From: a virus
Lineage: Duplodnaviria > Caudoviricetes
IMG/VR virus record: IMGVR_UViG_3300016722_000158
Coordinates: 1 to 61,695 of that record
DNA: 61,695 bases
Reading direction: 5' to 3' (one strand)
A program made the translations under genes and the position numbers. The notes beneath the pieces were generated by a model. That model saw only the letters and a program-made list of their open reading frames with translations. It did not search any database and was not told the origin of the DNA. Shown here in pieces: positions 24,446 to 54,500 of the stretch (the first letter of the stretch is position 1; each line of letters opens with the position of its first letter).

Positions 24446-24462
24446 ATGAATGTTTTTTTAAG

Positions 24463-28046: not shown

Positions 28047-28051
28047 ATAGG

Positions 28052-29390: not shown

Positions 29391-31951
29391 TTGAATGTTA
29401 ATCTAAAAGTTGCACCATGTTTATAGAATAATCCATTTCCAAGAAATGAAATATCACCGTTTAAAATCTCTTTCATCTTATATCGTATAGTGCTTAACCC
29501 TATTCCTGATCCTCCTCTTCTATTTGTGATTCCTTCTTCAAAGATATCTTCGGTAGAAAATTTTTGTAAGTCAAGTCCAATACCATCGTCGGAAAAATCG
29601 ATAATGATTTGATTCTCATTCTTACTAAATTCGACATGTATTTTTTTTGAATTAGCCTTAAAAGAATTACTAACTAAATTATCCAAAATAACAGAGATGT
29701 CAAGTAGTGATGTTTTCTTTATTAAAGGGCCAGGGGCGTTCGATTTGAAAGAAATATCTTCTATTGTATTTGCATCCCTATAGTTTGTCAAATATTCTTG
29801 TACGTATTCAGATATATCAACTTTCGTATATTCTCCCAAAATATTAATATCAGCTTTTGTAAGAAGCTCACTTAATTTATTAATTCTTTGAACATGAAAG
29901 AGCATATAATCTAAATCTTTTTGAAAAGCAGTTGATTTAGGGAAATCCTTTAGCTCACTATTTATGTTTCTTACAGAGGTAGAAAGTGAGTTAGAAGATA
30001 TTTTAATCGTGTGTATTAGACCTTCAACCTCTGGAGTAATATGACGAGTTGAAATAAGGTATCTATTTTTTGATTTCTCAATATCTCGTTCACTCTCAGC
30101 GCGTTTTTTTTCTTCTTCCGCTTTTTCCCTTTTTTTCTCTTCCTCTAATCGTTTTTGTTCTGCTTCTTTTCTTTTGACTTCTTCTTCACGTCTTCCTAAT
30201 TCTGCTTCTTTAGCACGTATTTGTGCTAGCTTTTTTTGTTCTTCCTCCTCTTGTCTTCTATGCTCTGCCTCAATTCTGGACAATTCTGCAAGTCTGGCTT
30301 TTTCTTCCGCTTCAATTCTTTTAGTCTCTTCTTCTTTAGCTCTCTGTTCGGCTAATTCCTTATCTCTTTGAAGTTCTAAAATACGACGTTTGGCTTCATC
30401 TATATTAAAGAGCAAGTTACTGTCATTTAAATCTGCTGCTATTTTTTCTAAGTCAGAAATAAACTGTGGCTTGATGTTCTCTGAAGTTTCTGGGTCAGAT
30501 AATATATTGGCTAAATCTTCGTTATAATATAATATTTCAACATTTGAATCTCTGGTTAAGGTCTTAATGAGTTGAACAAAATCAATTTTACTGCCAATAC
30601 TAGAATTAAATATATATTCAGGAGTTTCATTTTCACTTTCTGCTTCCAATAATTTTTTACGCTCTTGTTCTGCAATATTTTGGTGACGAAAATATTCTTT
30701 CCGAAGAAATGCCTCTCCCCATAAAACACCACTTACATACCTTTCCAATCTACGGTGAGCTACAGTGAAAAATTTCATTAATTGTCTAGAAACATTTGTT
30801 TCTATAAATCCTCCATCTCTGCTGGAAACCTCTTTTAGGTCGTCTACGTTATCGGTAACTATGTCGACGCGCCCAAATAGATCTCGTGTCCCTATGTTAC
30901 GGCGAGTTCCTTGTTGTGATCTATAGTCTAATTTCCAGCTGTCATCTCCGGGAGCTCCAAATGGCATAATACGGAATCCATTTCTAAATAAAAATATAGA
31001 GCCATAATTGACAGGTTGAATACCCATCAATTTCGTAAAATTCATCTTAGCAGATCTATTAAGATAGTATAAGCTAATCTTGACGTCTTTCAATTCCGGA
31101 AAATTGATATTTTCTTCACGTATCTTATAAATATCAACTCCTCTATCTATAATTTTGGATTGAATGTTATTACCTGATAGTTCAACTTCTATTTGAGTCG
31201 TTTTGATCTCTAGAATTTTTGCAATGCTATTTTTCAGTATTCCATTAACAATATCACGATCATATCCCCCCTCTGAAATTATTTTTTTGTCCTTTTCTGA
31301 TTCACGTTCGCAAATAATTTCAATACCAAAGTCATTCGTTTCAGATAAAGGGTTAATTAATTTCTCCAAAGATCGTTTTAATTCTAAAATCTTTGTTCTA
31401 TCCCAATAATCTCCTAATGAGCCTATTTCTAATATGGTTCCTGTAATTTTATTTTTAGGGAAAGAAATATATTCTTTCGCCTTTGTATAATCAACATTAA
31501 TCTGTTCAAACTCAGTGTGCTGATCTTTTTCAAATTGACTCCAATCAACGTAGATCTGTTCTACGAACTCAGAGTCCGCTGATTTAGTCGAAAGCAATAA
31601 ATGCTTACCTAGACGATCACATGAAAAACGGCCTATTCCCTTTGCACCTGCATAATGCCGTTTTATATTATCCCTATATGATTGATGCTTCATATAGTCA
31701 TCTTCACTACCATCTTTTTTTGCCGAAAAGCCAAGAAATAGCCATTTGTCACGAACATCTTCAAAGGTCATCCCTTTACCATTATCTGCAATAATAATCT
31801 TATCGTCTTCAAATTTAATTTCAACTTTATTAGCATAAGCATCATAAGCATTTTTCACTAATTCAAATATAGCGATATAATCATTAGTAATTAAATCCTT
31901 TCCAATAAGATCTTTTAAGGCTGAACTAATTTTAAATCTCATGTGTTCCAT
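29387..31951 (-). CDS. MORC/GHKL ATPase fused to a histidine kinase (854 aa)
   Basis: N-terminal ELVKNAYDA, DNGKGM, GAKGIGRFS; long coiled coil; GLIHTIK His; second ATP-binding domain NLVSNS, DDGIG, IFEEGIT, GSGIGL. Confidence 0.88.
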   Translation of the reverse strand: MEHMRFKISSALKDLIGKDLITNDYIAIFELVKNAYDAYANKVEIKFEDDKIIIADNGKGMTFEDVRDKWLFLGFSAKKDGSEDDYMKHQSYRDNIKRHYAGAKGIGRFSCDRLGKHLLLSTKSADSEFVEQIYVDWSQFEKDQHTEFEQINVDYTKAKEYISFPKNKITGTILEIGSLGDYWDRTKILELKRSLEKLINPLSETNDFGIEIICERESEKDKKIISEGGYDRDIVNGILKNSIAKILEIKTTQIEVELSGNNIQSKIIDRGVDIYKIREENINFPELKDVKISLYYLNRSAKMNFTKLMGIQPVNYGSIFLFRNGFRIMPFGAPGDDSWKLDYRSQQGTRRNIGTRDLFGRVDIVTDNVDDLKEVSSRDGGFIETNVSRQLMKFFTVAHRRLERYVSGVLWGEAFLRKEYFRHQNIAEQERKKLLEAESENETPEYIFNSSIGSKIDFVQLIKTLTRDSNVEILYYNEDLANILSDPETSENIKPQFISDLEKIAADLNDSNLLFNIDEAKRRILELQRDKELAEQRAKEEETKRIEAEEKARLAELSRIEAEHRRQEEEEQKKLAQIRAKEAELGRREEEVKRKEAEQKRLEEEKKREKAEEEKKRAESERDIEKSKNRYLISTRHITPEVEGLIHTIKISSNSLSTSVRNINSELKDFPKSTAFQKDLDYMLFHVQRINKLSELLTKADINILGEYTKVDISEYVQEYLTNYRDANTIEDISFKSNAPGPLIKKTSLLDISVILDNLVSNSFKANSKKIHVEFSKNENQIIIDFSDDGIGLDLQKFSTEDIFEEGITNRRGGSGIGLSTIRYKMKEILNGDISFLGNGLFYKHGATFRLTFK

Positions 31952-33158
31952 TTTCCAACATTTTTAAAAGTACTAATCCGGCCTGTTCAGCGAATAAAGG
32001 AGGTATGGCATTTCCAATTTGGGTATACCGCGGAACTTCTACTTTACGCATTTTTCCCCCTGTAGTGTATTTTTTCTTAATTTCATACCAATCGGGAAAA
32101 GATTGGATACGAGCACACTCTCTTACAGTCATAATTCGCGGTTCGCAATAATGCAAATAGTCTTCAGGATGTCCAGTTATCGTTGGAGAAATGGTATCTG
32201 GATCCAAAATGATTATTCCTCTTTGTTTAATATTCCACGCTTCTCTTATTTTTCCATCAATTCTTTTTCCTCGAAGAGGATAATTCACAAGCAAATTTTG
32301 ATAGCATTCTAATTTTGATTGAGTATGTTTTGCGAAACTATGACTATCTGGTATCATATTATTTTGGGCATAATCACCACGAAGCAATCTTTGATATTTG
32401 GATTGAGATGCTCCATACTTTCCAGACATAAATCCCTTCCTGTCTGGAGAAGGGACCATTCCGTTTACCTTTAACAAATCTGAAATGGCATCTTTTAATG
32501 AAACATGTTCACTAATATCCTTTTTTGTTAGAAAATCTTTTTTATGATGGTTAAGCATTTTTTCAAATTGCTCTGCATCTCCTAGTTTTTTGTTGATTCC
32601 AACAAGAATAAAACGTTTTCGTCTTTGTGGAATGCCATATTTTGAAAAGTCTATAATATGTGGTTTTACGTTGTACCCGAGTTCCTTTAATTTATCTGCT
32701 ACAATCTGAGAGTATGGGATGCGGTTATTGTTCTCTTTTGTATTGAAAGCATATGTAAATCCTTTCACGTTTTCAAAAAGAATCATTTTGGGCTTTACTA
32801 ACTTTATAAACTCAATATATGAGAATACGAGCTTATTTCTTACGTCTTCTTCAACCCGCTTTCCTGCCATTGAAAAGCCTTGACAAGGTGGCCCCCCTGC
32901 CACTAAATCAACAAAACCTCGTAATGCTTTTAATTGTTTTTTGTATTTCTTTAAAACTTCGTCAATGTCGTGTGGAGTTTGTGGTAACCATTCAGGCCAA
33001 TTAAAGTGCTTTTTATTGTCTATAAGGTTAAATTTTAATGTATCAAATGCAAAAGCATTCTTTTCAATAGCGAATAATCCCTGCCATCCAGCTTCGTATA
33101 GCCCTAAAGACAGCCCTCCACACCCAGAGAATAGATCAATTACTGTTGGCTTATGCAT
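31932..33158 (-). CDS. dcm: DNA (cytosine-5)-methyltransferase
   Basis: DLFSGCGG, GGPPCQGFS, ENVKG, QRRKR, RIQSFPD, QIGNAIPP. Confidence 0.95.
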   Translation of the reverse strand: MHKPTVIDLFSGCGGLSLGLYEAGWQGLFAIEKNAFAFDTLKFNLIDNKKHFNWPEWLPQTPHDIDEVLKKYKKQLKALRGFVDLVAGGPPCQGFSMAGKRVEEDVRNKLVFSYIEFIKLVKPKMILFENVKGFTYAFNTKENNNRIPYSQIVADKLKELGYNVKPHIIDFSKYGIPQRRKRFILVGINKKLGDAEQFEKMLNHHKKDFLTKKDISEHVSLKDAISDLLKVNGMVPSPDRKGFMSGKYGASQSKYQRLLRGDYAQNNMIPDSHSFAKHTQSKLECYQNLLVNYPLRGKRIDGKIREAWNIKQRGIIILDPDTISPTITGHPEDYLHYCEPRIMTVRECARIQSFPDWYEIKKKYTTGGKMRKVEVPRYTQIGNAIPPLFAEQAGLVLLKMLENGTHEI

Positions 33159-33276: not shown

Positions 33277-33696
33277 TTACTTCTTCACTTTATATTTCAC
33301 TAATATATAAACTCCCGATGAAATAACCAACACAATCAATGCGATTATTGTGATTTTGCCGGTATTTATTTCTACTTTTTGCCACTTGGTGAGCTGTTTC
33401 TCTACCGGATAAGGAACATGGATAGAATCCGTTTTGTTTAAGTAAATGCTATCTGTGCCAAAAATGTACTTGTTCACGTATTTCGTCCGATACTTATTCC
33501 AAAATACGGTATCACCTTTGATGTACGAATAAATGGAATCGTGCAAATAGATGGAATCATGCTTTTGTACAAGTTTATCAATATACTTTGTTTCAGTCCG
33601 TACGCTTTCAACCGGTACATACTTAACCGATCGACATGAAGTCAATAACATCATAAATACAATGATGGTGTACATATACGTCTGCTTTCGCTTCAT
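33277..33696 (-). CDS. Spanin-like lipoprotein
   Basis: Lipobox LLTSC plus a C-terminal TM helix, downstream of the endolysin. Confidence 0.7.
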   Translation of the reverse strand: MKRKQTYMYTIIVFMMLLTSCRSVKYVPVESVRTETKYIDKLVQKHDSIYLHDSIYSYIKGDTVFWNKYRTKYVNKYIFGTDSIYLNKTDSIHVPYPVEKQLTKWQKVEINTGKITIIALIVLVISSGVYILVKYKVKK

Positions 33697-33700
33697 ATCA

Positions 33701-34111
33701 TCAATCTTTAATGGTTATCAAAACGTCTTCTTTACCAGACAAAGCATTTTTAATGCGTTTATTCAGTTCATCAGACCACTTGCGTGAATTAGTCAGTCCG
33801 CCTATCACGGTATTTTCGCCAACCAAAATACAACCTTCCGTATCTTCAGCCTTATCACCCGGATGAATACGAATAGCTTCAAACTGCGGAACGCCGTTAA
33901 CGAGTGGCATTACTCGCTTGAACTTGGGAGAGTAAGTCATCGTTACCCGGTAAGTCCCGGCAGGAATGGCCGTCCTGCCGAAAACTTTGGATTCTTTTGT
34001 AAGGTCTCTGACTTTATCTTCAAGTGTGTTACAGAAGTATTTCCCATCAATGGCCATCTTTCCGATGGTATACGTCTCTTTTTTCCAAAGTCTGTCAACC
34101 GTTATTCTCAT
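33701..34111 (-). CDS. DUF5675-family putative endolysin
   Basis: YTIG, CNTLED, TAIPAGTY, IRIHPG..DTEGCILVG. Confidence 0.82.
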   Translation of the reverse strand: MRITVDRLWKKETYTIGKMAIDGKYFCNTLEDKVRDLTKESKVFGRTAIPAGTYRVTMTYSPKFKRVMPLVNGVPQFEAIRIHPGDKAEDTEGCILVGENTVIGGLTNSRKWSDELNKRIKNALSGKEDVLITIKD

Positions 34112-34568
34112 TGTCTTTTTCCTCCTGTTGTTTGATGATATTGAAAATCTTATCGGCTTTGTCTTGTCCGTAAGCAGTGGCGATGCTTTGCATCATGGCG
34201 ATCGGATCATGTGTTTCAGTCCGTCCTTTATGCATGTTCTCCCGGATAGATATAACCTCTATGATTATCTCTGATATGGCACAAAGAGTACAAAGTACCG
34301 GAAAGTCAACAAAAAAGGAAAGGCAGCAATCTATCAGAAACATCAGGAAATAATACATCATATAGTCTCTGTCCTTACTTATAGTCTGACGAAGCCCGAA
34401 TGAGGTTGTTTTAAAGTTACCTAATCGCTTACTAGCCTTGATGCCGGTAACCAAGTCAAAGATACTTGATACGTTTATAATGACAGCCAAAACCGCAGAG
34501 ACAAGCAACCACATTGCTATTTTTGATGTTTCTCCTGTGAGGAGATACGATATAAATAACATCTTCAT
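34095..34568 (-). CDS. Putative holin
   Basis: 2-3 TM helices; DLVTGIKAS..TSFGLRQT..K and EVISIREN; overlaps the endolysin. Confidence 0.75.
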   Translation of the reverse strand: MKMLFISYLLTGETSKIAMWLLVSAVLAVIINVSSIFDLVTGIKASKRLGNFKTTSFGLRQTISKDRDYMMYYFLMFLIDCCLSFFVDFPVLCTLCAISEIIIEVISIRENMHKGRTETHDPIAMMQSIATAYGQDKADKIFNIIKQQEEKDNENNG

Positions 34569-40955: not shown

Positions 40956-42548
40956 TTACGCTTTATTCGCAAGTAATTCACCTGTATAAGCTACCCATGC
41001 ACTACCTGACCACGTAACGATGTCGCCTTTTACGAAATTGCCCGCTGCAGCTGAAAGAATAACGACATCCCCTTCGGTAGGAGATTGAGGAAGAGTAGCT
41101 GATGAAACGACCTTAGCAGCGCCCGGAATATCACTGTGAGTTGCACTACCATCTACCCAAATGTGGCTAAATCCTTTTAAGCAGAGGCAGTCTATTGTCA
41201 TGACTACATCACGTTTTGCTTCTTCACCCTGTACATTTTCAGAGTTGCTCTCTTCGTTTTTCATCCAATAGCGGACAAGGCCTTGTTCGTCCAAAAGTGC
41301 GCCGCACTTTGAATAGCCTAAACGGTTAAGAGCAGGGTCATGAATAAGATCGATATCTCCGAATACTGTCTTGATCTTGGTACACTTGATGCCAAAGACC
41401 TCACTGTCTACCATGGAGATATCCTTGTGCAGGGTTAAATCGATTTTCTGAATATCCGCCATCAATAATTTGCCAAGTAACCAAACAGCTGTTTTAGAGC
41501 AGTTAAGTCCTGTGAATTTGACCATAGACAGATTGATCAAATCATCAAGAGTTATTTTTTCGGATAAATCATATTGACGTTTGATTTGCCAACGAACACC
41601 TTGTGAAAAATAGACATCCTGTTTTCCCAAGGTTTTATCCTGTGATGCTACTTTTATTTTTCCTTTTTGACCTACCCATGCCGTACGGCAGCTTTCCAAA
41701 CGAAATTGACGAAGCATCGCTTCTGCAATGGTCGCTTTTTGGAATGGTATCTTTTTCTTTTGGGCGTCGAAATAATCGGAAACGATATTGTTACAGAGTT
41801 GCTTCTGTAGGTAAACGATTTCCGGAGTTGGCAAGATTGTATTGGGAGCAATGTACTTTTGCGTTTCATATCCGGCAGAACTCAAGAGGATAATTTCCGT
41901 ACCAGAAGGGATATTTGGTACGTAACAAGAGGAGTCTTCTTTATTAACTTTTGGTCCATTGATCGCAATAATAATAGGCATGTTGTTCGTTTCGTTTTGA
42001 GAAACTACATAACACATAAGGTCTGTTTCCAATTTTGTCTGTCCTGTGGAATCGTATCCATTTACACCTTTCAACAGTACAGTATAGTACTCTTGGAACA
42101 GCTTGGCGTCAGCTGCAGATAATTTGAGTTCGGCACGTTCGGCCTTGGCATCATTGGTATAGGCACTAATCGTCATTGCCGAAGAGCGCTTTTCATCAAT
42201 CATGTAGTGTTCAACAACGAATGAACTTACTCTGACCTGCCGTTTGACTCGTCTTTTAATCGTATCAATAACGGACTCGTCAGAAGCAATTTGGGTTATC
42301 TCTTCATCTATCTCAGGCTGAATCAAATCACCGCCAGCTTCCTCAGCATTGGATACCGTTGTTGATTCTCCCGGTACCTGTGTCGACAAGCCCTGCTGCC
42401 CGGTAGTAGCATTAGGTGTACCAGGGGCTACCGTGGTCACTTCGGCCATCATAACGCCCTGCGCACCAAAGAATACACAGAGAATCATCAGAGTGAGAGA
42501 AATAACAATCCCTCTGTTCTCATTTAACTTTTTGAATAGTTTTCTCAT
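40956..42548 (-). CDS. Putative major capsid protein with an N-terminal hydrophobic segment
   Basis: 530 aa; follows the scaffold gene under a late promoter and is followed by a terminator; FGIKCTKIKTVFGDI..HDP C-terminal pattern. Call is mainly positional. Confidence 0.75.
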   Translation of the reverse strand: MRKLFKKLNENRGIVISLTLMILCVFFGAQGVMMAEVTTVAPGTPNATTGQQGLSTQVPGESTTVSNAEEAGGDLIQPEIDEEITQIASDESVIDTIKRRVKRQVRVSSFVVEHYMIDEKRSSAMTISAYTNDAKAERAELKLSAADAKLFQEYYTVLLKGVNGYDSTGQTKLETDLMCYVVSQNETNNMPIIIAINGPKVNKEDSSCYVPNIPSGTEIILLSSAGYETQKYIAPNTILPTPEIVYLQKQLCNNIVSDYFDAQKKKIPFQKATIAEAMLRQFRLESCRTAWVGQKGKIKVASQDKTLGKQDVYFSQGVRWQIKRQYDLSEKITLDDLINLSMVKFTGLNCSKTAVWLLGKLLMADIQKIDLTLHKDISMVDSEVFGIKCTKIKTVFGDIDLIHDPALNRLGYSKCGALLDEQGLVRYWMKNEESNSENVQGEEAKRDVVMTIDCLCLKGFSHIWVDGSATHSDIPGAAKVVSSATLPQSPTEGDVVILSAAAGNFVKGDIVTWSGSAWVAYTGELLANKA

Positions 42549-42580
42549 TTTCTTACTTATGAATTTATTAGTAAATTTAA

Positions 42581-43417
42581 TTATGCCATTTTCGCCAGGC
42601 CAATCATTCCACTTGAATGCTTCTTCTTATTGGCTATTGGAGCATTTTCAGTAACTAATGCTTTGGGCATTCCGTCACCTTCATCTTCCCTCATCTTTTG
42701 AATTTTGAGATTTCGTCCCTTTACTTCTCCAGCTTCAAGTGCATCATTTACGTCTTTATCATAATTGAATGCTTTATCAAGCTTTGCAAGCAGCTCAGGC
42801 GTATAAGTTCCATCGAATATAGGCGAGATTATTTCATCCCAGACTCTACCCAAAAAATCATTGGGCTCATATCCATGTTCCTTGCAAAAATCGATGACAG
42901 AAGGCATTGTCTTATCGATATTTTCATCATAGACCTTTTTCGATGCAGAATAATCGTCCAACTCCTTTTTCCGTTCCTCTTCCGCTTTGGCTATTTCTTC
43001 TGCTTCTGGAGTTCCTTCTTCGGCCGAGAGGAAATCTTTTCCAAAATAACGAGCGAGTGCTCCGGCACTGCCACGCTTTCCAGATGCTATATCTGAGAGC
43101 GCTTGTGCAAGGCGTGGATCTTTTGCGAGTGCTTCGGCTAATTTTGCAGATTGTTCATCGTTATTTTTGATGTAACCGGCAATAATTTCCGCATTGCTTT
43201 CTTCGTCCTCAGGGTTATAACCCTCAAATCGTGCCGAGAGCATTTCTCTCAGTTTATCTCTTTTTGAAGGCTTCTTTTCTTCTGTAGGGGCTTCTATTGC
43301 AGGTGGCGTTTCTTCTGTTGGCGAATTCTCGCTTTCAGTAGAAGGTTTTTCATTTTCTACGGTTTCGGTATTAACCTCTTCCTCTGGCTGTACTTTTTTA
43401 TCTTCTTCTTTTTCCAT
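42581..43417 (-). CDS. Putative scaffolding protein
   Basis: Very acidic, disordered N-terminus, helical; GEVKGRNLKI; directly upstream of the capsid gene. Confidence 0.65.
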   Translation of the reverse strand: MEKEEDKKVQPEEEVNTETVENEKPSTESENSPTEETPPAIEAPTEEKKPSKRDKLREMLSARFEGYNPEDEESNAEIIAGYIKNNDEQSAKLAEALAKDPRLAQALSDIASGKRGSAGALARYFGKDFLSAEEGTPEAEEIAKAEEERKKELDDYSASKKVYDENIDKTMPSVIDFCKEHGYEPNDFLGRVWDEIISPIFDGTYTPELLAKLDKAFNYDKDVNDALEAGEVKGRNLKIQKMREDEGDGMPKALVTENAPIANKKKHSSGMIGLAKMA

Positions 43418-43453
43418 TCTTCGTGACGTTTAAATTCGATTTATAATTCAGTG

Positions 43454-43499
43454 CAAATAAAGGATTAAAAATCATCTCTGCTGTTGCTGTCTTCACTAT
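43454..43499 (-). promoter_or_regulatory. Putative late promoter, copy 3
   Basis: ATAGTGAAGACAGCAACA with TTTATTTG ending 28 nt later. Confidence 0.65.
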
Positions 43500-43522
43500 T
43501 CGGATTCGGGTGTTGATAACTT

Positions 43523-43567
43523 ATTGTGAAATCAGCAACATTAAACAATAGCTTTAATATAACTTTG
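43523..43567 (+). promoter_or_regulatory. Putative late promoter, copy 4 (divergent from copy 3)
   Basis: ATTGTGAAATCAGCAACA with TAACTTTG ending 27 nt later. Confidence 0.7.
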
Positions 43568-43591
43568 TAATAACTTAATATTAAGAAATAT

Positions 43592-43975
43592 ATGTCAGAA
43601 ACAATTATTGCGATAAGAAACAAAGATATTATTAATGCATATTTTGATTCCATTAAGTGTGTACATAACATTAACCCGTTGGCAACTTGGAGAGAGATAA
43701 TAGAACATACCTCAAAAAAATCAGCTCCTAGATTCTATGCAACTTTTGAAAACTCAAGAAGATTTATTTCCTTAATGAATAGAGGGCTTGATATTCCCAT
43801 TAGTAACACAAATAAAATAAGTATGTACAATGAAATATACAAGCGTTTTACGGAGAGAGGAGGAGGGGACCGCTACGTTATTCTTCGAGATATATTAGAG
43901 GAAGAAGCACCTTCTTTTTATCTTAGTTTTTGGGAAATGTATCAGGTAATCTATAAATCACTTAGAAAAAAATGA
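43592..43975 (+). CDS. Hypothetical protein, first gene of the packaging operon
   Basis: 127 aa; duplicated APRFY/APSFY motif. Confidence 0.7.
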   Translation: MSETIIAIRNKDIINAYFDSIKCVHNINPLATWREIIEHTSKKSAPRFYATFENSRRFISLMNRGLDIPISNTNKISMYNEIYKRFTERGGGDRYVILRDILEEEAPSFYLSFWEMYQVIYKSLRKK

Positions 43976-44454
43976 ATTTTATTCTGTTATTAATATTTAT
44001 CTGGTCACTTGGAATGTGTACGGATATTCGCTCGTTTGGCTATTCTTTTGATTCGTCTTGGTATACGTTATTTACCTTTAGTTATGTGCATGTTTCATTC
44101 ATTCATTTATTAATCAACTCTTGCGTCTTTATCTGCTATTGGAGGCCTATGAAAGGGCTTATTAATATGAAGTTACTCATTCCTATGATAATTTTCATAC
44201 CGGCCGTATCTGCATACCTTTCAGCGTCTTCAGTTCCAACGGTGGGAGCCTCCGCCATAATAATGGTCTTAATGGGAGTCTATTTGACAATGCCTATCCC
44301 TAAAAAAGTTGTCCGTGAAATTTGGATATTGACCATTATAAGTTTTGTCGTCACATTTATTTTTGCCCCTCAGATTAATACCCTTATACACATTTACTCT
44401 CTCCTGCTTTCTTATGTAATTAGTCTGTTGGCAGGTAGGAGGATATATGCTTAA
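43972..44454 (+). CDS. Rhomboid-family intramembrane serine protease
   Basis: WYTLFT, HVSFIHLLIN, catalytic VGASA and NTLIH; multiple TM helices. Confidence 0.85.
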   Translation: MNFILLLIFIWSLGMCTDIRSFGYSFDSSWYTLFTFSYVHVSFIHLLINSCVFICYWRPMKGLINMKLLIPMIIFIPAVSAYLSASSVPTVGASAIIMVLMGVYLTMPIPKKVVREIWILTIISFVVTFIFAPQINTLIHIYSLLLSYVISLLAGRRIYA

Positions 44455-46456
44455 TCAAACGGACATATTAAAAGAAAATTATCGAAGGCTTAAAGAAATA
44501 AAATGCCCTTATAACCCTTATACCGGTGAAGGGTCCAATTCGATTGAACGCATTAAAGTTCAAATAGAGGGAGCTCCGTTACCGATAATGTATTTGCCGA
44601 ATGACCTTGTAAAAACGGGATTTTTGCAGAGTTTAAAAGATTTAGGTATTGACGGCTATATTAAGTTCATTCTTGGTGTTGGACCGACTAATGAGTTAAG
44701 AGATGAACTTTGGATAAATTTCTGTAAGGAAAGAATAAAGTATGATTTTGAATATTGGGCGGTTTCTCTTGCAACAATTTCAATAAAAGGAAAAGGTCGC
44801 GATGATAAGTTCACTCTTAATCGCGCTCAAAGGTATTACCTTAAAAAGCTGGAGGAATTAAGACTCGCCGGGGTTCCGATTGATATTATCCTTTTAAAAG
44901 CCAGGCAATGGGGCGGCTCTACGCTTACTCAGCTCTACATGTTATGGATTCAGTTAGTTCATCGAAATAATTGGAATAGCGTAATTTGTGGAGCTGTCGA
45001 AGCACAGGCCAAGACAGTTAGAGGCATGCTTACAAAAGCTTTGGATCATTATGAATTGTGGGCTACCGATGGCTTGGCTTTGACGACTCATCCTTTTGAA
45101 GGTTCTCAAAAAACCAGAATAATAGATTATTCAAGGTCTATTTATTCTGTAGGTTCTGCGGAAAGGCCCGAATCACTTCGAAGCCAAGATATATCAATGG
45201 CCCATCTTACTGAAGTCGGTATTTGGGGAGAAACATCAAAGAAAAAACCGGAAGATCTTGTACAATCAATCTTTGGTTCTATTCTTTCCGGTCCTTATAC
45301 TCTGAAAGTCTTGGAATCAACGGCCAAAGGTGTTGGGAATTATTTTCATCGTACATGGATAGAAGCGGTTGAGGGAAAGAATAACTTCACGCCGGTATTC
45401 ATCCCTTGGTTTATGATTGATATTTATTCAAAGCCTATCAATCAAAAAGATTATCCATCGTTTATTGCCTCACTTACGGAATATGAATATTGGCTATTTG
45501 AACTTGGTGCAACGCTAGAAGCCATTAATTGGTATAGAGATAAGTCAAAGGAGATAACAGATAGATGGAGAATGTGTAGTGAATTTCCATCTACTGCAGA
45601 AGAAGCATTCCAATCGACAGGGCGAAGAGTATTTCCTATCAAATATGTTTCGAATATCAAGTCCACTTGTATTGATCCTATCTGTTATGGGGAATTTGTG
45701 GGAAACTCGGATAAAGGAAAGGAAGCCTTTGAAGGCTTACATTTCGAAAAAATTATTCCTACAAAGAAGAATCCGGAGGATGTCCTTTGGATATGGGGTA
45801 TGCCTGATAAAACCATAGACTGTCGAGATAGATATGTGGTTTCTATAGATGTCGGAGGTGTATCTTCAACCTCAGATCCTTCGGAAATTAAAGTCGCTGA
45901 TAGAATCTCAATGTTAGAAGGGGGAGTACCTGAGATTGTTGCCGAGTGGCATGGCCATATTGATCATGATCTTTTAATTTGGAAAGGTGCTCAAATCGCC
46001 AAGGCTTACAATGATGCTCTTTTGGTAATAGAAAGCAATACTCTTGAAACAGATGGTACGGAAGGAGACAACTTTGAGTATATATTGGATGAAATTAGAA
46101 GCTATTATGATAATCTATATTATCGTACTTCTCCGGAACAGATTAAACAGGGTATGCCTACCAGGTACGGTTTTCATACAAATGTGCACACGAAGCCTAC
46201 GGTTATCAATTTCTTGAAAGCTGCAATGAGAGATAATCTTTATCTTGAAAGGAGCCTTCCGACAATCTTAGAGTACAATTTATTTGAAATAAAATCTAAT
46301 GGAAAAGAGATGGGAGCCGTTGAAGGTAATCATGATGATAGAGTAATGGCAACGGCGATACTCATTTACATTTGTTATAAATGGGCACCGCCGCGAATTA
46401 TAGTTAAGATGAAATTCAAAACTAAAAATAGGAATGTGAGCGAAGCTGTTATTTAA
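44447..46456 (+). CDS. terL: Terminase large subunit
   Basis: LKARQWGGST Walker A, AHLTEV Walker B, LESTAKG, VSIDVGG, VIESN, HDDRVMA. Confidence 0.93.
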   Translation: MLNQTDILKENYRRLKEIKCPYNPYTGEGSNSIERIKVQIEGAPLPIMYLPNDLVKTGFLQSLKDLGIDGYIKFILGVGPTNELRDELWINFCKERIKYDFEYWAVSLATISIKGKGRDDKFTLNRAQRYYLKKLEELRLAGVPIDIILLKARQWGGSTLTQLYMLWIQLVHRNNWNSVICGAVEAQAKTVRGMLTKALDHYELWATDGLALTTHPFEGSQKTRIIDYSRSIYSVGSAERPESLRSQDISMAHLTEVGIWGETSKKKPEDLVQSIFGSILSGPYTLKVLESTAKGVGNYFHRTWIEAVEGKNNFTPVFIPWFMIDIYSKPINQKDYPSFIASLTEYEYWLFELGATLEAINWYRDKSKEITDRWRMCSEFPSTAEEAFQSTGRRVFPIKYVSNIKSTCIDPICYGEFVGNSDKGKEAFEGLHFEKIIPTKKNPEDVLWIWGMPDKTIDCRDRYVVSIDVGGVSSTSDPSEIKVADRISMLEGGVPEIVAEWHGHIDHDLLIWKGAQIAKAYNDALLVIESNTLETDGTEGDNFEYILDEIRSYYDNLYYRTSPEQIKQGMPTRYGFHTNVHTKPTVINFLKAAMRDNLYLERSLPTILEYNLFEIKSNGKEMGAVEGNHDDRVMATAILIYICYKWAPPRIIVKMKFKTKNRNVSEAVI

Positions 46457-46460: not shown

Positions 46461-48443
46461 TTAAGCCGCTTTTTGTACAATTCCGTCTGTAGGAGAGGCA
46501 TTCCTATCATTTTGAAGTTTCTGCATCATTTGAGGATTGTTACTTGCACCGGTTACTTGTTGCATCATGTTTGGATCCACTCCTTGTATCTGTTGGCTTT
46601 GTTGCATCGCTTGTTCGTTCTGCTTAATCGATTCCAGAATTTTAGAAGCAAACGGATAAGAGCAATTTTCAAGCATGATTTTTATATCGATTGCACCTTG
46701 CTGATATAGTTTCTCCAGAAATTCATTTTCTAAAGCTTGAAATACCGGTGTGTTGGTACCGTCTGTAAGTTGGATATCTATTTCTGCGTTCTGAACTTTC
46801 TCCGGATTATAATATCTGGATTCTTTAGAATAGAACTTTCCAGAAATATCAATATGTCTCGCAGATGTGTAATATTGCTGAATGGTCTGCATTAGCTTAT
46901 AATCTCGTCTTTTTCTGAATGATTTAAATGATTCGAACAATCCTTTTAAATTCAGAGATGATTGTTGTACTTGTTGCGCATACAAAGAAGCTGCGGTACC
47001 GGAAGGCGCCTCTTTTCCTTGCATGGCACTATTTACGCCTGCAATATCATTGATGAGTTTGAGTTGTAAATTCAAAAGTTCAAAATCACCTGCAAGACTA
47101 GCCCCGCCATTATATTGTTTGATGACATTATCGATGTTTTTCCCTTCTCTAAGCTTAACGAATATGACTCCGTTATATCGGACATATTCATCAACGATAT
47201 CTTCTTTTGTCATACTTTCACATACACTCTCATCAACAATAAGGACGCCTTTAGCTGAAGAACTTCTCATGAAATCGATAAGCATCATTGTTCGGTTTAT
47301 CGCTCTTTGCTGATCGATGAAGTCTTCAACAAAATTAAATATATGCCCTTGTATCATAGGGTAAATCATCAAGGCATAATTATGTTGCTCATGCCAATAT
47401 GGACTTCTACCTTCTTGCAATATATCCCCAGCTGGCGTCATATATCTGTAGTACCAATAGAGTTCATTGGCATATTCGTATTCGATAAGGAGCGTGTCTT
47501 CTGGAAGAACTCCGTTTTCTTTTGCTTTTTGAATCCTCCTTTTGTTCTCAGCATCAATAAAAGGTGTTTTGTTTTTATCTGCATAATAAAAAGTTCCTTT
47601 TAAATAATCATGGCAGTAGATTGCAGGTCGTGTTTCAAGTTTCCATGCAAAAATAACCCGGCACATATCACTTCTTGAAGGGACAAAAAAAGTCATATCC
47701 TTGTTCTGATTCCCTTGCATTCCATCTACTTCCGTAAATACGGATGTGCTTTTTCGGCCATATATGCTATGAATCCAATCTTCATCTTCTTTACTGCGTG
47801 CGAATGCTGCTATGATATTTTCAATGCGCATATCATAGATTTCACCTATCAAGTTAAGGTCCCATCCTCTGACATCTTCCATATCAGTATTGAAAAACAT
47901 TCTTGAAGGATTTACTCCGAACACCCAGACATCATTCATTCTCTTATTCGGATTCCAACCGTATTCTATTCGCTGTGCGGAAAAACCTCCAAGCAAAAGC
48001 ATTCTAAGAGTATCAGAGTCAAGTTCTACAGTTTCATTTAGCTCTTGAACATATTCAAGGGCTATGCTCATCATCTCACCGATTTTTGCTTCTTCTTGAT
48101 CTCTTACGGAACAAATGGTTTCGGTTATATTATTTCTGAATTGGCCATCAACGTTTTTTAGAATGGGGCTTATCATGTTATTTTTCAAAGGTTGTTTGCC
48201 TTGTTTTCTGATAAGCTCATTTTCTGTTATCATAAATCCTGTTTCAGGGTCCTTTATCATATCTCCCCATTGATCTTCGTAGGCATACATAACGCTTCGA
48301 CGCATCTTTTTTCTGACTGTTTCCAACGAACTCCAACAAGCTGCGCACTCCTGAATAATGTCATAAGCTTTTCCCTTTTCCCTGGGAATAGCCGTAGATT
48401 TCTTGCTTGGTTTAACGTATTTACTGTTTAAGAATTTATTCAT
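46461..48443 (-). CDS. Portal protein
   Basis: DQW, PLKNNMI, FIDQQRAINR, IAGVNSAMQG; Gln-rich C-terminus; start placed at MNKFLNS, downstream of promoter copy 5. Confidence 0.85.
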   Translation of the reverse strand: MNKFLNSKYVKPSKKSTAIPREKGKAYDIIQECAACWSSLETVRKKMRRSVMYAYEDQWGDMIKDPETGFMITENELIRKQGKQPLKNNMISPILKNVDGQFRNNITETICSVRDQEEAKIGEMMSIALEYVQELNETVELDSDTLRMLLLGGFSAQRIEYGWNPNKRMNDVWVFGVNPSRMFFNTDMEDVRGWDLNLIGEIYDMRIENIIAAFARSKEDEDWIHSIYGRKSTSVFTEVDGMQGNQNKDMTFFVPSRSDMCRVIFAWKLETRPAIYCHDYLKGTFYYADKNKTPFIDAENKRRIQKAKENGVLPEDTLLIEYEYANELYWYYRYMTPAGDILQEGRSPYWHEQHNYALMIYPMIQGHIFNFVEDFIDQQRAINRTMMLIDFMRSSSAKGVLIVDESVCESMTKEDIVDEYVRYNGVIFVKLREGKNIDNVIKQYNGGASLAGDFELLNLQLKLINDIAGVNSAMQGKEAPSGTAASLYAQQVQQSSLNLKGLFESFKSFRKRRDYKLMQTIQQYYTSARHIDISGKFYSKESRYYNPEKVQNAEIDIQLTDGTNTPVFQALENEFLEKLYQQGAIDIKIMLENCSYPFASKILESIKQNEQAMQQSQQIQGVDPNMMQQVTGASNNPQMMQKLQNDRNASPTDGIVQKAA

Positions 48444-48459
48444 AACTGATAATTTTAAG

Positions 48460-48505
48460 CAAATGTAAACTTCATTCTGATTAACCACATTGCTAGTTTG
48501 ACAAT
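48460..48505 (-). promoter_or_regulatory. Putative late promoter, copy 5
   Basis: ATTGTCAAACTAGCAATG with TACATTTG ending 28 nt later. Confidence 0.7.
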
Positions 48506-48506
48506 A

Positions 48507-51500
48507 TTACTTTTCAAGCTGTTCGACCATAGCCTTCTTGAGTCCATAAATTTGTTTTTGAAGTTGGTCTGATTCATTGCCATCCGGAATGGATTTGGCT
48601 TTTTGCTGAATAGTCTCTATTATCTTTTTATACATTCCGATGATCTGCATGTCCTTTTCGTTTTCGAGATTGGCTTTTTTATTAAAATAATGCTCTACCG
48701 CACCTTTCTCACTTGACATTATACTTTTTGTATATTCTCTGTCTTGGCTTTGGTTTTCTTCGTACTCGTCCAAATATCTATAATACCTTTCGTTGATATT
48801 GGAATTGCCTTTACTATTATCAAATTTATATAATAGAGCACTGACGGCCGGTATGTCTCTAACATCAACATCTTTGCCGGGAGTGACTAAGTTATATCCC
48901 GATTTGGCAACACCATAAATTTGTTTTAATACTCCACCACCGTAATTGTTGAATAGGTATTCCATTACAGCAGGGTTCGTCAGTTCAGAATCTAAAGCAC
49001 CTTTCTTTGCCATATCCCCTCCAGAGAGATCATTAATACCCTTTGAAATAGCTATTGCCAAGTCGGAAGTACTTCTATATCCTTTTTTATATTCAGGAAC
49101 ATATTCGTTGAATTCATTTCTTTTTGATATTGGTCGGCCTGTATAATCTTTATTTGTCCAATAGACATCTATAAGAGGTTTTACCGCACTAGGGGCTAGT
49201 GTATTAGCAAGTATTTGTTCGAAAGTATCTCCCTTACTATTGCTCCCTTCCATAAAGTTATATGGAGCAGCTTCCATAAATTTGGTTGCTATATCTGTAG
49301 CGGCATTCTTGCCATGATATTTACCCAATATCATCTGAGCAAGTATATCACCCATCGCAAAGAATGGTCTTATTTCAAGTGCGAGAGGTAAATTTAGTAC
49401 CAAATCTCCTCCAGCGCTAATAACGAAATTATTTTGTCTTATCCAATCGGGTAGTTGATAATATTTATCATCACCATATATTGATTGGAGAATACCTTTC
49501 ATTGCACCTATTAGAGTCCATGTTCCAAATGCTATGGTAGATTTGACAGGGTGGTATTTGAATCCTCTGTTAGTGTTATTAAATGCTTGCACTCCTGCAT
49601 TTAAGAACATTTCCCATGCCCTAATAAAGGAATTCCCATTTCGTCCACTTCCCATTTTATTAAAGTTTACGGATATTTCCTTTGCTGCATATATAGACTT
49701 CATGATACTTTTGCCACCTTCTCGAGATGCGATATATGCAGATAACCGGGTAGTATCCTCAGCACCTCTGTTAAGGACTTCCATTGCATTACCAATCCAT
49801 CGGAAAAGATGTAATTTAGTGGGATGTTTTACTTTGTCTATTTCGTTTTGAATTTCTTTGAAGTAATCTTTATATGACATGGAATTGGTGTATCCCGTCT
49901 CTCCACCATTTTTCAGAAATTCTTCCAAATATTTTCCATATTTCCCCTCAGGTATTTTCTTGGTGGCTAAATATTCGGCAAGAACTTTAGACGCTTTCGG
50001 AGCTGCTTCAAAGAACTCTTTCATACTTGAGTATCCATATATGTAGTTATATGTGATAGCTCCGGTATAGTCTCTGAAGAAGTTTTTAATCACGAAATTT
50101 ATCATTTTTGATGTGAAATTTCGGGCCATCCAATTCGTCGCATTTTTAAGTTTCTGGAATGCCTGCATGCCTTCATCTATGTTATCTCCGTTGATGGATT
50201 GTGCTACTCTAGGTGAAGAATCCATACTGATAATGTAGTCTTTTCCATTTATCGTAAGTCTTACTTGGTGCTGTTTAGCTTGCCATGCTTTAATAGGGAC
50301 GCCGATAGATAATTTTTCATTCTTTTGTACTACGATGTTTTGCTTCGCTAATGATTTCATTCGGTTATTCCACTCTTCAAAAGCGGTATCGTAATTTTCT
50401 CCATCAAGAGGGTTTCCTTTGCTGTCAACCCCTTCAAAGGCTACCTCTTCATACGTTAGTGTGTTCGGATTCCATGCGACCCACACAGGAGATACATGAG
50501 CAAGATTTGTAGGATAATTGAATACCAATCTATACAGATGTTGTTTTACCCTATTTTTATTTCCTATCACGATAGCGCTATCAGCCATTGAACCGATGTT
50601 GGCTATCGGGTCACCTGCTTTAGTTTTACGTCCTTTGGCTTTTTGAATAGGTATATTAAGATCATGGCGATCCTTATAAAAATAAGTGAAGAAGTCTTCT
50701 GCTTGTGGGTCTGCCCAATCTCTTAGTGGAACATAATAGTTATACATGGCCTTGATTTGTTCCATGCGCTCTTTGCTTATGCATCCATATAGCCTTTGGG
50801 TCTCGAGGCAAAAGTTAGTGGCTTCATGTATATTGTCCCACATACCAGATATATCATCCTTGTTGTGGCTTTTCTCAAATTCGTCTACAAAATTTTGGAT
50901 GTATGGCTCATTTAGTTTAATATCTTTTAAGTCGGAATCATCCCCCTGCAATTCTTTTTGGAGTTGTGTTAATCCGGCAAAATCTTCATTGGCAAAATCT
51001 TCAGTGATTTTTGTTGCAATCTTTTTGATTTTGCTTTCAAGAGATTCTCTCTGGGCATTCGCTTCCTCTTCACTGATACTGTGTCTTGAAAGAAGGTAGT
51101 CTATTTGGGATATCTGTTCTTTTAATGGTGCTATAGCTTCTTCGATTTTTTGTTTACGCATGTAAACGTTCCTTTCAAGGCCGTGCTTAGCTATTAGATA
51201 ATTGATGACATCATCATATTCACCAACTTTATTGACTGCTGAAAGCATCCTATCAAAAACAATCGATTTGAAAGTGTCCTTTTCGTATCTGGCTCTTGAG
51301 GTCATTACAATAGATGACAGGTGTGCGTCACACTCATCCGGAATTTCCATTTTGTACTTCTTTGCTACTGTCTCTTGGAATACTCTTACAGGATTCATTT
51401 TGTCTACCCAAGATTCAAACAATACCTGGTGTTCCATCCGTTTTATAAAGTCGTTCTGTTCTTCTTCATTGAGCATGGCAACTTCTTTTGTTATTCCGAT

Positions 51501-54500
51501 TATGTCATTGAAATCTTTCTCCGAGAGTTTTTGCGGATCCAATCGGAAGAGGGGAGTAGCTTTTCTGTTATCTACGAAATCGTCTTTGTAGATATTATCT
51601 TTCACTTTGAATTCTTTACTGTAATTATCTGGAGTATCTTCCAAATGTCTGCGACTCTTCCAAAGCAAATACTTGATATCATTGTCTGACATCTTAATCT
51701 TTATACCGGCTTTTCTGAGAAGTTCTCTAACCTTTGATATGATTGTTTTCCAAATAGTCGGTTTATCGATTCCGCTTTCTGCTAGGCGGGCACAATATTC
51801 TTCTGCGGCTTCTGTCGTATCCCAACTTTTACTATTTAGGAATATATCACTAATTTCTTTTCTTTCTGATTCAGGTAGTGAACGGAATATGTCGTTCATG
51901 GTATCATCAAAACTGTCACCTAACAATTTACGGAGTCCTTTATGCGCAACGACTTCGTGAAGGATAGTTTGTTTAACATCTTCTTCGTCGATGTTGTTTT
52001 TAGGATTTATATAAACTTCATCAGTTCGTGTATCATACCAGCCTTTGGAATTTCTTTTTTTGATCGAGTATTCGTCACTTCCTTTTATATCCTCGGAATT
52101 TGTAAAATGTACTTCGGTGTTAAGAGTCTTTGCAAGCTCCTCTGCCGCAGACATGATCTTTCCGTCTTGCAATGTTGGGTTCTTGAAATCTTTGATTATA
52201 TTTGCAGTCGTAGGGCTATTACTTGGTATGGCATCTTCCCGAAAGCGAATGTCACTTTTTCCTTGGTTGAAACGCTTGGACGGAAGTATGATGTTTCCTT
52301 TATCGTCACGGGTGATTAAGTCATTCAGCTTGCGGTTGTTTTTCGTATTCTTGTATCTGTAAGAACTGCCGTCATCAACTCCCCATTCATTAACATCGTT
52401 CCCGTCCCAATAGAGTTCATTAGCTGGAACATCCTGCTCTATCAGTCTATATTTTCCCTCTAGCCGGTTATTACCGTGCATCTCCGCATATTTCTTACTA
52501 GGAGTTACCCAATCGCCATTTCTTACTTTGCTTTCCTTTATATCAGTCGGGACGGCTCGATATACTTTTACCATCGGTTTTTCTCCACGTTTCACAGCCT
52601 CCATCGCTTCATTTATCGCATGTGCGGATTCAACGCTGTGTTCTTCGCTTCTGCTATATGCTCTGTCATTGGAAAAATAGTCGTCAGCTTGCGGAGAATA
52701 GCCGGCCGCAATATCTTCAATATTCACATCCGTGTTATCGCCTTTATCGATATAAGAGCGACGTTCCTCTGTCGTATCGAAGCCATTGCTTGGAGCTACC
52801 CATGTTCCTTCGCCCTGATAATCGCTTTCCACGTCTGAATACCCTTTACGCATTGCCGCTTCATTTATACACCTGCGCATAACTTCTTCATCTTTTGATT
52901 TGACGGCATCCATATATGTCTTATCCAAATCATCGGCACTCATACGTGTATAGGGCTTCTGTTTTTCCTCTTCTTCTAGTTGCGCTTTCTCTATTTCTGC
53001 TTTTTTCTCCTGCTCTGCCCTGCGTGAAGCTTCCATTTGCCCGATGGCTATTCTATGGCGCTCTTCCTGTTCTGCTATATGTCTTTCTATCTCAGGGAAT
53101 CGGGAATATAAGTATTCCCGCATTTCAGCCACCTTTTTGCGTCTCTCAACAAGCCCGATATTCAACGATGCATCATACCTTCTCAATATAAGATCAAGTC
53201 TCTTCTTTGCTCTGGCATAGTCGTGAAACTTATCTACATCATCTTTTGCATAATCAACAAGGAAATCCAAATCATTATTTTTTAGCCATTTATCTTTATC
53301 ATTGTTTTCCTGTTTGTTTTCTCTAATCAACTCTACCAGCGGCATCGCGGTACTATCCGTCGTTTCTATATCGGAAACATCGACGCCTCTTTTTTTAAGA
53401 GCACGTAAAGCGGCCTTTGTGCTTTCCAAATTAGGATTTCCCTTAGCTGCCTTTACAAGTATTTCTATTTGACTGGGTTGTCTGAGCTCTCCTTTCGCAA
53501 GTTTATCCCGGTATTCTTTTCTTAACTCTTCACGCTTTTTAGTGTACTCCACGTCTTTCTTGTGTTGGAGTTCAACAACCTTGTTTTGTTGGGCTTCTGA
53601 TTTTTGCTTCCCTTTATGTAATGCAGAATCGCCTATTCCCGAAAAGTCGTATCCCTCTGATGCAAGATATTCTTCTTCGGTCATTGCGGGAATATCTTTC
53701 GATTCGGTCAAAGGAGATAAATCGTGTTGTTTTTCAACATCAGTTTTAACCGTAGAATATTCTGCAAATGGTTTTGTCTTTCTTTTTGAACTGTCTATCC
53801 ACTTTTTAAATTCTTCTTTAGAAACAGGAGTTATGTTTCCAAGTCCTTTCCAACCCTTTCCATAATTGGCCAGATAAGCTTCTTTAGCTTCCTCTGTAGA
53901 ATTGAAGCCATACATTACCTTGTGCTCGTCAAAAGAGCCGTCCGGTTTGATCTGATCAACGACATAGACTTTGCCTTCTTCCGGATGATCTGAAAGGAAC
54001 ATATCTATGTGGTCCCCGTCAACACCTTTGGTACCTCGAATATAGCCGTACGTATTATGTATTTCAGTTTCCCACTTGTTACCATTTGCATCGGTTCCGC
54101 TACGCACAGAGCCTTTAGGATTTTCTATGGTTATATCAAACCCGTCAATCTTTACATGGCCTTTCTTATAGTTACCGGCTTCCTTTTGTGCGTCTGTAGG
54201 ATTGGTGACTACTTTATTTTCTTCATCATGTAATTCTTTTGCTGCAGCAATACGATTCGCATAATTCAGAATCGATTCGTCACGTTTCTTTTCAGGGGAT
54301 ACAAAAGATGAATCGGCTTCTTTTATTTCATCGTCAATGACGTAAATATTTCCACTTTCAGATTTAAGAACATTTCTAGGGCGTAAATCGGATATGATGA
54401 TTTTCCCATTGGAATACATGGCCTCTCCTGTTTCTTTGAATCCAAGAGACTTCATATATGATTTTATTTCTTGTGGAGATGCAGGAACTGCGTTTAGTAT

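Follow-up and report, generated by a model that had tools for sequence, protein, structure and literature searches.

The window analysed here is a stretch of 61,695 bases that makes up the whole of IMG/VR virus record IMGVR_UViG_3300016722_000158. Its right part carries a head and packaging gene cluster, in which the gene of a major capsid protein (MCP) and the gene of a rhomboid, an intramembrane protease, lie close to one another. The MCP precursor begins with a hydrophobic leader of the kind found on secreted proteins. Across the MCP family, the leader and the rhomboid are kept together and are absent together. Judged from sequence, this pairing points to a putative, undescribed membrane step in the building of tailed-phage heads. 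The features at the centre of the analysis are the following.

40956 to 42548, minus strand: MCP precursor, 530 amino acids, HK97 fold (AlphaFold2 model, Foldseek, PHROG 26635)
42444 to 42548, minus strand: MCP leader, codons 1 to 35 (sequence, predicted helix, start context)
43972 to 44454, plus strand: rhomboid, 160 amino acids, six helices (PF01694, 35.8 bits)

The first-pass annotation, a reading of the DNA letters, named the open reading frame (ORF) at 40956 to 42548 as the putative MCP, and its modelled fold bears this out. The AlphaFold2 model, built on a 76-row alignment, has a confident body with a mean pLDDT of 87.3. It contains a helix at residues 2 to 26 and disorder at residues 29 to 40 and 76 to 86. 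When the model is compared with the Protein Data Bank (PDB) by Foldseek, there are 324 matches at E<=0.001, and the top ones listed are capsid proteins or encapsulins. The matches include the capsid proteins of Vibrio phage VP1 (9in6, 2.8e-21) and phicrAss001 (7qof, 9e-15), as well as P1, SU10 and HK97 (1ohg). No Pfam family matches the protein at E<=0.1, and the only PHROG matched is 26635, which is listed as 'unknown function'. Homologues in Bacteroides phage isolates are annotated as DUF5309/DUF2951 in GenBank notes, which are the source of the DUF5309 label. On the strength of the predicted structure, this ORF is an HK97-fold MCP.

The N-terminus of the 530-residue protein reads MRKLFKKLNENR-GIVISLTLMILCVFFGAQGVMMA-EVTT. 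It has the layout given in the first-pass annotation, with a basic stretch followed by an uncharged run that includes GAQG. The basic n-region covers residues 1 to 12, and 23 uncharged residues (G13 to A35) lie between R12 and E36. These consist of a hydrophobic core at residues 13 to 27 and a G-rich c-region, GAQGVMMA, at residues 28 to 35. The leader junction is presumed to be A35|E36. Beyond the leader, residues 41 to 75 (about 42324 to 42428) hold a G-L-x-T-Q-x-P-G-x-x-T-T-V-S motif, and its conservation extends from the window as far as the leaderless relatives. This linker motif is modelled at a pLDDT of 70 to 80, and the linker is not junk.

A HMMER scan of 1.84 billion representatives finds 412 relatives of the MCP at E<=0.001, and the best 150 of the 412 are used. 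Representatives of at least 430 amino acids, pooled with the sequences of the loci described below, give 232 unique N-termini. A leader, called where the hydrophobic core has a KD15 of at least 2.0, is present in 151 of the 232 and is found in homologues down to about 22-25% identity. By these sequence comparisons the leader is far beyond chance, ancient and conserved in kind. Its n-region has an average net charge of +2.7 and is positive in 97% of cases, and the median length of the uncharged span is 22 residues. Positions P5 to P7 are dominated by G, S or D. The c-region ends in 'MA' in 106 of the 151 leaders and in 'MxA' in 25, and the remaining 20 have neither ending.

The sequence context of the possible start codons differs between the two ends of the leader. 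The AT content of the 25 nucleotides 5' of the leader ATG is 0.80 (n=55), and the same value is found at leaderless starts (0.80, n=54), compared with 0.40 before the internal Met-Ala ATG (n=47). The A content is 0.14 before the internal ATG and 0.46-0.47 before the leader and leaderless starts. This AT-rich context is present at the leader ATG and not at the internal ATG, so the long form is probably the main product. An internal start at M33/M34 is unlikely on this evidence. The preference for the long start, which was first based on the AT-rich leader of the window, thus holds family-wide.

The leaderless MCPs start near the point where the leader ends in the others. All 80 maximal leaderless ORFs start with MAE.., MDGE.. 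or similar and have no space for an upstream leader. The median distance from their start to a conserved downstream motif, [ST]Q..G..T[TV], is 24 residues (range 22-31, n=49). In the clade of the window, the ..MA/LAA junction lies 20-23 residues ahead of the same motif (n=14). Leaderless MCPs therefore begin 'MAE..' at the point matching the leader end. The comparison is made by distance to the conserved motif, as MAFFT alignment of the low-complexity junction is unreliable for placing starts. In five leaderless relatives (L039, L041, L049, L057 and L060), a short reading frame lies about 190 nucleotides upstream of the MCP start. Its product repeats the N-arm motif of the MCP (GSAGLxTQxPGxxTTVSxxxxATGGIxPGN), and its stop is just ahead of the MCP start. 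Such a frame may be a remnant, or a gene for a duplicated N-arm peptide.

The rhomboid matches PF01694 with 35.8 bits against a cut-off of 22.6, and the match covers residues 28 to 155. The G92-A-S94 motif lies in transmembrane (TM) helix 4, with the Ser codon at 44251-44253, and H140 lies in TM6, with its codon at 44389-44391. TM2 contains H40, H45 and N49. Among 54 unique phage rhomboids, H40, H45, N49, G92 and S94 never vary, and H140 is kept in 96%. A 22-row profile of the phage rhomboids matches GlpG at 1e-8, and the catalytic residues align to the GLSG and AHIAG of GlpG. The H45/N49 region aligns to ..MHILFN.. of GlpG, and these two residues correspond to H150 and N154, which we take to be the TM2 oxyanion-site residues of that enzyme. 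The AlphaFold2 model has a pLDDT of 89.1 and six long helices, with a TM-score of 0.76 to E. coli GlpG (6pjr). As a single query, the rhomboid of the window has no match in the PDB or in cultured phages; the profile and other phage rhomboids did match.

Each sequence and fold feature tested was found, and the protein is a true rhomboid-family member. It is catalytically complete and of the active type, as far as sequence and predicted fold can tell, in agreement with the intact GAS and His motifs noticed at the outset. Lysine and arginine amount to 9.28 in the N-terminus, loop 2, loop 4 and C-terminus, versus 1.56 in L1, L3 and L5. This distribution predicts the canonical topology, with the active site opening to the periplasm. 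The rhomboid start is 1,424 nucleotides from the MCP start, and the rhomboid stop overlaps the start of the large terminase gene (terL, 44447) by 8 nucleotides; the spacing of about 1.4 kb and the terL overlap had both been read correctly before. A complex prediction for the rhomboid with MCP residues 1 to 70 scores 0.02, against a mark of 0.32, and is not used as evidence either way.

The distribution of leader and rhomboid is scored in 177 MCP loci. They come from the window, two isolates, one metagenome-assembled genome (MAG) and four scans, three of them led by different subclades and one by the representative P0144. Leader and rhomboid are scored with a family HMM, and the rhomboid is counted within 10 kb. 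The loci fall as follows.

Leader present, rhomboid in the locus: 65 loci
Leader present, no rhomboid in the locus: 32 loci
No leader, no rhomboid in the locus: 80 loci
No leader, rhomboid in the locus: 0 loci

The 32 loci with only a leader consist of one clade with an altered gene order and one locus that is cut at its edge. Whole records were searched for 15 of the 32, and a rhomboid above the PF01694 cut-off is present in all 15, although in 2 of these records the cut-off is passed only by adding neighbouring matches in frame. In these records with a relocated rhomboid, the gene ahead of it again codes for a homologue of the 127-residue protein that precedes it in the window. No rhomboid is found at E<=1 in any of 10 leaderless genomes, each of which is at least 98% complete. 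The leaderless loci have an equivalent neighbourhood, with terL in 78 of 80 and a scaffold-like gene in 79 of 80.

All three cultured isolates with this MCP (BS-TP4, BF1-TP2 and BKO1-TP3) carry the rhomboid. The rhomboid gene is annotated in the GenBank records of the isolates. In two isolate records (L001 and L002; GenBank PQ571277 and PQ571263), the terL homologue is labelled 'tail spike protein', and the rhomboid region of BKO1-TP3 is labelled 'glycoside hydrolase' or hypothetical. The 'tail spike' and 'glycoside hydrolase' labels are probably annotation errors.

In a FastTree phylogeny of 116 rows, the leaderless forms make up one nested clade of 15 representatives with a support of 99. 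This clade branches beside the clade of the window, and leader-bearing forms are found on both deep sides of it. The tree leaves out representatives shorter than 430 amino acids, keeps the leader columns and is rooted at the midpoint. As there is a single nested leaderless clade, the pattern is most simply explained by one joint loss event. The joint occurrence that the first-pass annotation proposed as a check across related phages is thus found, with leader and rhomboid retained or absent together and one loss event behind the absences. Most of the other rows flagged as leaderless come from gene calls truncated at the 5' end or miss the threshold. Independent leaderless cases may exist in P0045, P0078, P0144 and P0030/P0033. 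The scan led by P0144 returns only leader- and rhomboid-bearing relatives, at 33-44% identity. P0145, P0045 and P0078 were searched for as independent leaderless lineages and are not found in the collections, and the number of independent losses stands at one.

The other genes of the head and packaging cluster are arranged around the MCP and the rhomboid as follows.

42581 to 43417, minus strand: acidic protein of 278 amino acids upstream of the MCP (PHROG 22323, function unknown)
43418 to 43591, no strand: divergent intergenic region of 174 bp between the scaffold-MCP operon and the operon of the 127-residue protein, rhomboid and terL (ORF coordinates)
43592 to 43975, plus strand: protein of 127 amino acids (PHROG 27246, function unknown), with a stop that overlaps the rhomboid start (ATGA)
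44447 to 46456, plus strand: large terminase, terL (PHROG 2 and other terminase PHROGs)
46461 to 48488, minus strand: P22-like portal (PF16510, 1.3e-28; PHROG 156, 1.8e-57)

The gene order of this cluster, with scaffold, portal and terminase around the MCP, recurs in relatives. The acidic protein of 278 residues appears scaffold-like from its position and composition. Every locus of the clade of the window has its gene beside the MCP, as do 79 of the 80 leaderless loci. The 127-residue protein appears from its place in the cluster to occupy the position expected of a small terminase, and may be a small terminase or a regulator. Its homologue always lies immediately 5' of the rhomboid and overlaps it, even when the rhomboid is away from terL (loci L172-L176 and L177-L180). 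Leaderless phages retain the gene without the rhomboid, and where a homologue is detectable, it abuts terL directly.

The late-promoter motif that had been claimed as common to the MCP and the rhomboid is not confirmed. TAnnTTTG, which we take to be the Bacteroides -7 promoter consensus, occurs once in the region from 43418 to 43591, at 43560 on the plus strand, 32 nucleotides 5' of the ORF of the 127-residue protein. It is absent from the minus strand of this region, on the side of the MCP operon. The motif is also not enriched in the window, with 46 and 48 sites per strand compared with 46.3 in shuffled sequence. The arrangement that is seen is of two operons diverging from one intergenic region. 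The first-pass annotation recognised no prohead protease in the window, and none is found in Pfam scans of 48 of its ORFs, in which the only peptidase families are the rhomboid and an S24 repressor-type protein (2919-3668).

A copy of the capsid gene that is 96% identical is found on a 3.69-Mb contig of an uncultured Bacteroides MAG, as the one match in a single-protein scan of genome contigs. This copy identifies the phage as a temperate Bacteroides phage, and the window is a complete genome of 61.7 kb. The left part of the window contains an integrase-type gene, the S24 repressor, RecT and AbiH (1407-2294). Defence-like genes lie in the middle, and the head and packaging cluster lies to the right. 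The defence-like or accessory block (19103-33158, minus strand) includes a protein with Metallophos and STAND NTPase domains (19103-22216), an 8xMP membrane protein (24463-25266), a TPR/DUF2971 protein (25498-27738), a HATPase_c protein of 854 amino acids (29387-31951), a receiver-domain protein and a C5 cytosine methylase (31932-33158). It is followed by a likely lysis cassette (33277-34568, minus strand). This consists of a holin-like ORF (34095-34568; PF05105, 21.3 bits, slightly below the cut-off), a DUF5675 protein (33701-34111) and an ORF of 139 amino acids (33277-33696) with a lipoprotein-like signal at its N-terminus and a TM segment at its C-terminus. Beside the portal lies a giant ORF of 3,559 amino acids (48507-59186, minus strand) with the polyvalent-protein domains Kinase-PolyVal, InPase and LPD38, and isolate BS-TP4 has a counterpart of 5,391 amino acids in the equivalent position. 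A transposase-type helix-turn-helix ORF (PF01527; 61225-61695, plus strand) runs past the right end of the record.

The flanks of the leader carry opposite charges, with +2.64 on the N-terminal side and -3.86 on the C-terminal side, and in each of 159 leaders compared the N flank has the more positive charge. Under the positive-inside rule, the positively charged flank stays inside, and the predicted orientation is therefore N-in/C-out, the orientation that type II proteins and signal peptides adopt. An N-in orientation predicts that the Gly-rich/..MA junction lies at the periplasmic face, which is the site of the active centres of both a canonical rhomboid and signal peptidase I (SPase I). 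The junction of the window, V-M-M-A|E-V, has Ala at P1, Val at P4 and Val at P2'. A small P1 and hydrophobic P4 and P2' residues make up the published rhomboid motif, as set out in a portion of PMC2941825. With the cleavage site assumed, the sequence V-M-M-A|E-V fits this motif.

These observations can be joined in a proposed pathway. Translation from the upstream ATG would yield an MCP precursor whose 35-residue leader resembles a Sec signal: it opens with a basic amphipathic stretch and continues through a hydrophobic core and a Gly-rich break to ..MMA|E. The leader would carry the precursor to the inner membrane in the N-in orientation and place the Gly-rich/..MA junction at the outer face. 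The phage rhomboid would cut at the junction, and the mature MCP would begin at about residue 36, the natural start of leaderless relatives. As a guess, insertion would arrest as a hairpin, and once the cut is made the uncharged linker of about 50 residues would slip back. In HK97-type shells the N-arm faces the interior of the procapsid, so the leader must come off before the shells close, and the cut would gate capsid assembly. From the sequence evidence, removal of the MCP leader by the phage rhomboid, on the outer face of the inner membrane, is evenly poised between probable and improbable. The broader proposal is that a large clade of Bacteroidota tailed phages routes its MCP through the membrane as a signal-anchored precursor unable to assemble, and that the rhomboid, by cutting the type II-oriented leader within or beside the membrane, releases the protein and licenses head assembly. 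It is put forward tentatively and is somewhat more doubtful than probable.

The first-pass annotation inferred that the rhomboid frees the capsid protein from a membrane anchor. The identity of the capsid protein, the long start, the intact rhomboid and the co-occurrence are all supported. A plain cytoplasmic tether and release does not fit the N-in/C-out orientation that the charges predict. Several further points weigh against rhomboid cleavage of the leader. According to PMC2941825, canonical rhomboid substrates are N-out; Star, of type II, is an exception and has to loop or to bind in reverse. The leader is predicted to be N-in, and its motif lies C-terminal to the TM core. Across the family, the rhomboid motif is fitted only in part, with F, V, L or I at P4 in 65 of 106 leaders, and at P2' V or I in 21 of 106 and Ala in 36 of 106. 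The residues at P3 (A in 51, L in 27, C in 8, V in 6, M in 5, G in 4 and S in 2 of 106), together with Ala at P1, are a good fit to SPase I. These counts depend on a P1 anchor, 'MA', that was picked by the analyst, and 45 of the 151 leaders lack an exact 'MA'. The co-occurrence is one evolutionary event, so that other genes lost on the same branch would match equally, and many of the 177 loci are near-duplicates.

The nature of the leader is itself at odds with its passenger. The leader has the design of a signal peptide, with a positive n-region, a hydrophobic h-region and a polar c-region with a helix break. By default, such a leader would be read as sending the entire protein out of the cytoplasm; for a capsid protein this makes no sense, and it also counts against the proposed pathway. 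Here the passenger is no exported protein: it has the HK97 fold of a capsid protein, its partners are scaffold, portal and terminase, and the capsid protein of a tailed phage acts in the cytoplasm. A signal-type leader on a cytoplasmic capsid protein means that an essential piece of the mechanism is missing under any reading.

The closest competitor to rhomboid cleavage starts from the same leader. SPase I requires small or aliphatic residues at -3 and -1. In the window, the A35 site has Ala at -1 and Met at -3, a poor -3 residue, and an alternative site, A-Q-G|V, would suit SPase I. As the c-region fits the -3/-1 rule at least as well as it fits the rhomboid motif, the host signal peptidase stays a live rival. 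It would cut the leader at an AxA-like site, and the rhomboid would be secondary in the same pathway; this is unlikely, but it deserves serious weight. The family has a textbook signal peptide, with an n-region of +2.7, a helix break at P5-P7, one of A, L, C, V, M, G or S at P3 in 103 of 106 and Ala at P1. Cleavage by SPase I predicts an identical co-occurrence pattern, and bacteria of the host genus bring a rhomboid and Sec machinery of their own (Bacteroides thetaiotaomicron, run as a control, is positive). The rhomboid could then chop the tens of thousands of freed leader peptides and so avert membrane depolarisation and early lysis, a role that is equally unlikely. We know of no rhomboid that acts as a signal-peptide peptidase, and in E. 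coli signal-peptide clean-up is carried out by RseP and SppA. Nor does this reading account for the need of a dying cell to clear its leaders. The manner in which an exported-type precursor becomes a cytoplasmic capsid protein is left unsolved by SPase I cleavage as well.

Two other explanations separate the leader from the rhomboid. The rhomboid may have a different substrate, such as a holin-like or small TM protein of the phage or a membrane protein of the host, with the joint loss being a coincidence of shared descent. The single loss event would allow this, and the window contains candidate TM proteins in an ORF of 71 amino acids (3959-4174), the holin-like ORF (34095-34568), the ORF at 33277-33696 and the 8xMP protein (24463-25266). 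It is nevertheless improbable, because both traits survive MCP divergence to about 22-25% identity and changes in gene order (the relocated-rhomboid clade and L177-L180). The rhomboid is also always in or beside the head-gene cluster, adjoining the 127-residue gene, and none of the 80 leaderless loci or the 10 complete leaderless genomes has kept it. The remaining explanation is that the long form is a minor or special isoform, either exported, membrane-bound or uncleaved, and that most MCP starts at the internal Met (..M-A-E..). A Met is at or beside the junction in 131 of 151 leaders, and its position shifts by one residue, which is easier to accommodate for a start codon than for a protease subsite. 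Leaderless MCPs, moreover, start exactly with M-A-E. Such an isoform is very improbable, since the 25 nucleotides before the internal ATG are GC-rich (AT 0.40, A 0.14), 20 of 151 leaders have no such Met, the leader design is clearly under selection and the rhomboid is left without a role.

In the accepted view, the capsid proteins that make up the heads of tailed phages are soluble and cytoplasmic, and any trimming of them is done by soluble proteases inside the procapsid. A secretion-type leader on a capsid protein, tied to an intramembrane protease, departs from this standard picture and would add a membrane checkpoint to head assembly. If rhomboid cleavage of the MCP is correct, it would be the first case of intramembrane proteolysis in virus capsid maturation, it would give a viral rhomboid a known substrate for the first time, and it would be a natural example of a rhomboid that processes an N-in substrate. 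The rhomboid field would gain a rare case from the bacterial world, a minimal enzyme of 160 residues whose candidate substrate is an obvious one, both abundant and genetically linked to it. Bacteroidota viromes, those of the human gut among them, commonly contain phages of this family (412 clusters of representatives at E<=0.001), and three cultured isolates exist, so the proposal is directly testable. Among the papers listed in literature searches, none, judged by title or abstract, links a rhomboid with a phage capsid or concerns phage or viral rhomboids or a phage MCP with a signal peptide. A term search of the paper on the three isolates (PMC12694917), whose supplements may hold annotations, does not find the word 'rhomboid'. 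In the 2025 review of the rhomboid superfamily (PMC12615303), a term search finds neither 'phage' nor 'virus'.

The nearest relative of known structure is GlpG of E. coli and H. influenzae (MEROPS S54, PF01694; PDB 2IC8, 2NR9 and 6PJR). The phage rhomboid shares with it the six-helix core, the H..H...N of TM2, the GxS of TM4 and the His of TM6, as well as the predicted topology with the active site facing the periplasm. Unlike GlpG, the phage enzyme has 160 amino acids, no cytoplasmic N-domain and a short L1 loop, and the two are about 18-20% identical. It is also encoded in a phage head and packaging operon, and its presumed substrate is an N-in capsid protein.

The mitochondrial rhomboid PARL cuts in or beside the N-terminal TM segment of PINK1, whose large soluble C-terminal domain leaves on the side of synthesis. 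PARL and PINK1 are both listed in a portion of the rhomboid review (PMC12615303). The likeness to the proposed phage step is the release of a large soluble domain. PARL differs in having a 1+6-helix architecture and an inverted topology. PINK1 has its N-terminus on the active-site side, belongs to a eukaryotic mitochondrial system and yields a fragment for degradation and not for assembly. In Providencia stuartii, AarA trims a short N-terminal extension off TatA, which is inactive until cut, according to portions of PMC2941825 and PMC3712462. The motif of a small P1 with hydrophobic P4 and P2' described there is matched by V-M-M-A|E-V in the window. TatA is N-out in the same account and loses 8 residues while its TM helix stays, whereas the entire TM leader would come off the N-in precursor of the phage MCP.

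The leader is also like the Sec signal peptides cut by SPase I, in its tripartite n/h/c arrangement, its positive n-region, its helix break and its small residues at -1 and often at -3. Phages are known to use N-terminal signal anchors for timed release in signal-anchor-release (SAR) endolysins. In comparison with SAR domains, the MCP leader has a strongly hydrophobic h-core, its passenger is a capsid protein that assembles in the cytoplasm, and it is tied to a phage rhomboid. The prohead proteases are soluble enzymes of the herpesvirus-assemblin-like or ClpP-like type that act inside the assembled procapsid, where gp4 of HK97 trims the delta domain of gp5 and gp21 of T4 trims gp23. The phage rhomboid resembles them as a phage-encoded protease that lies among head genes and would remove an N-terminal segment of an HK97-fold capsid protein. 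It differs from them in being intramembrane, and it would have to act before shell closure.

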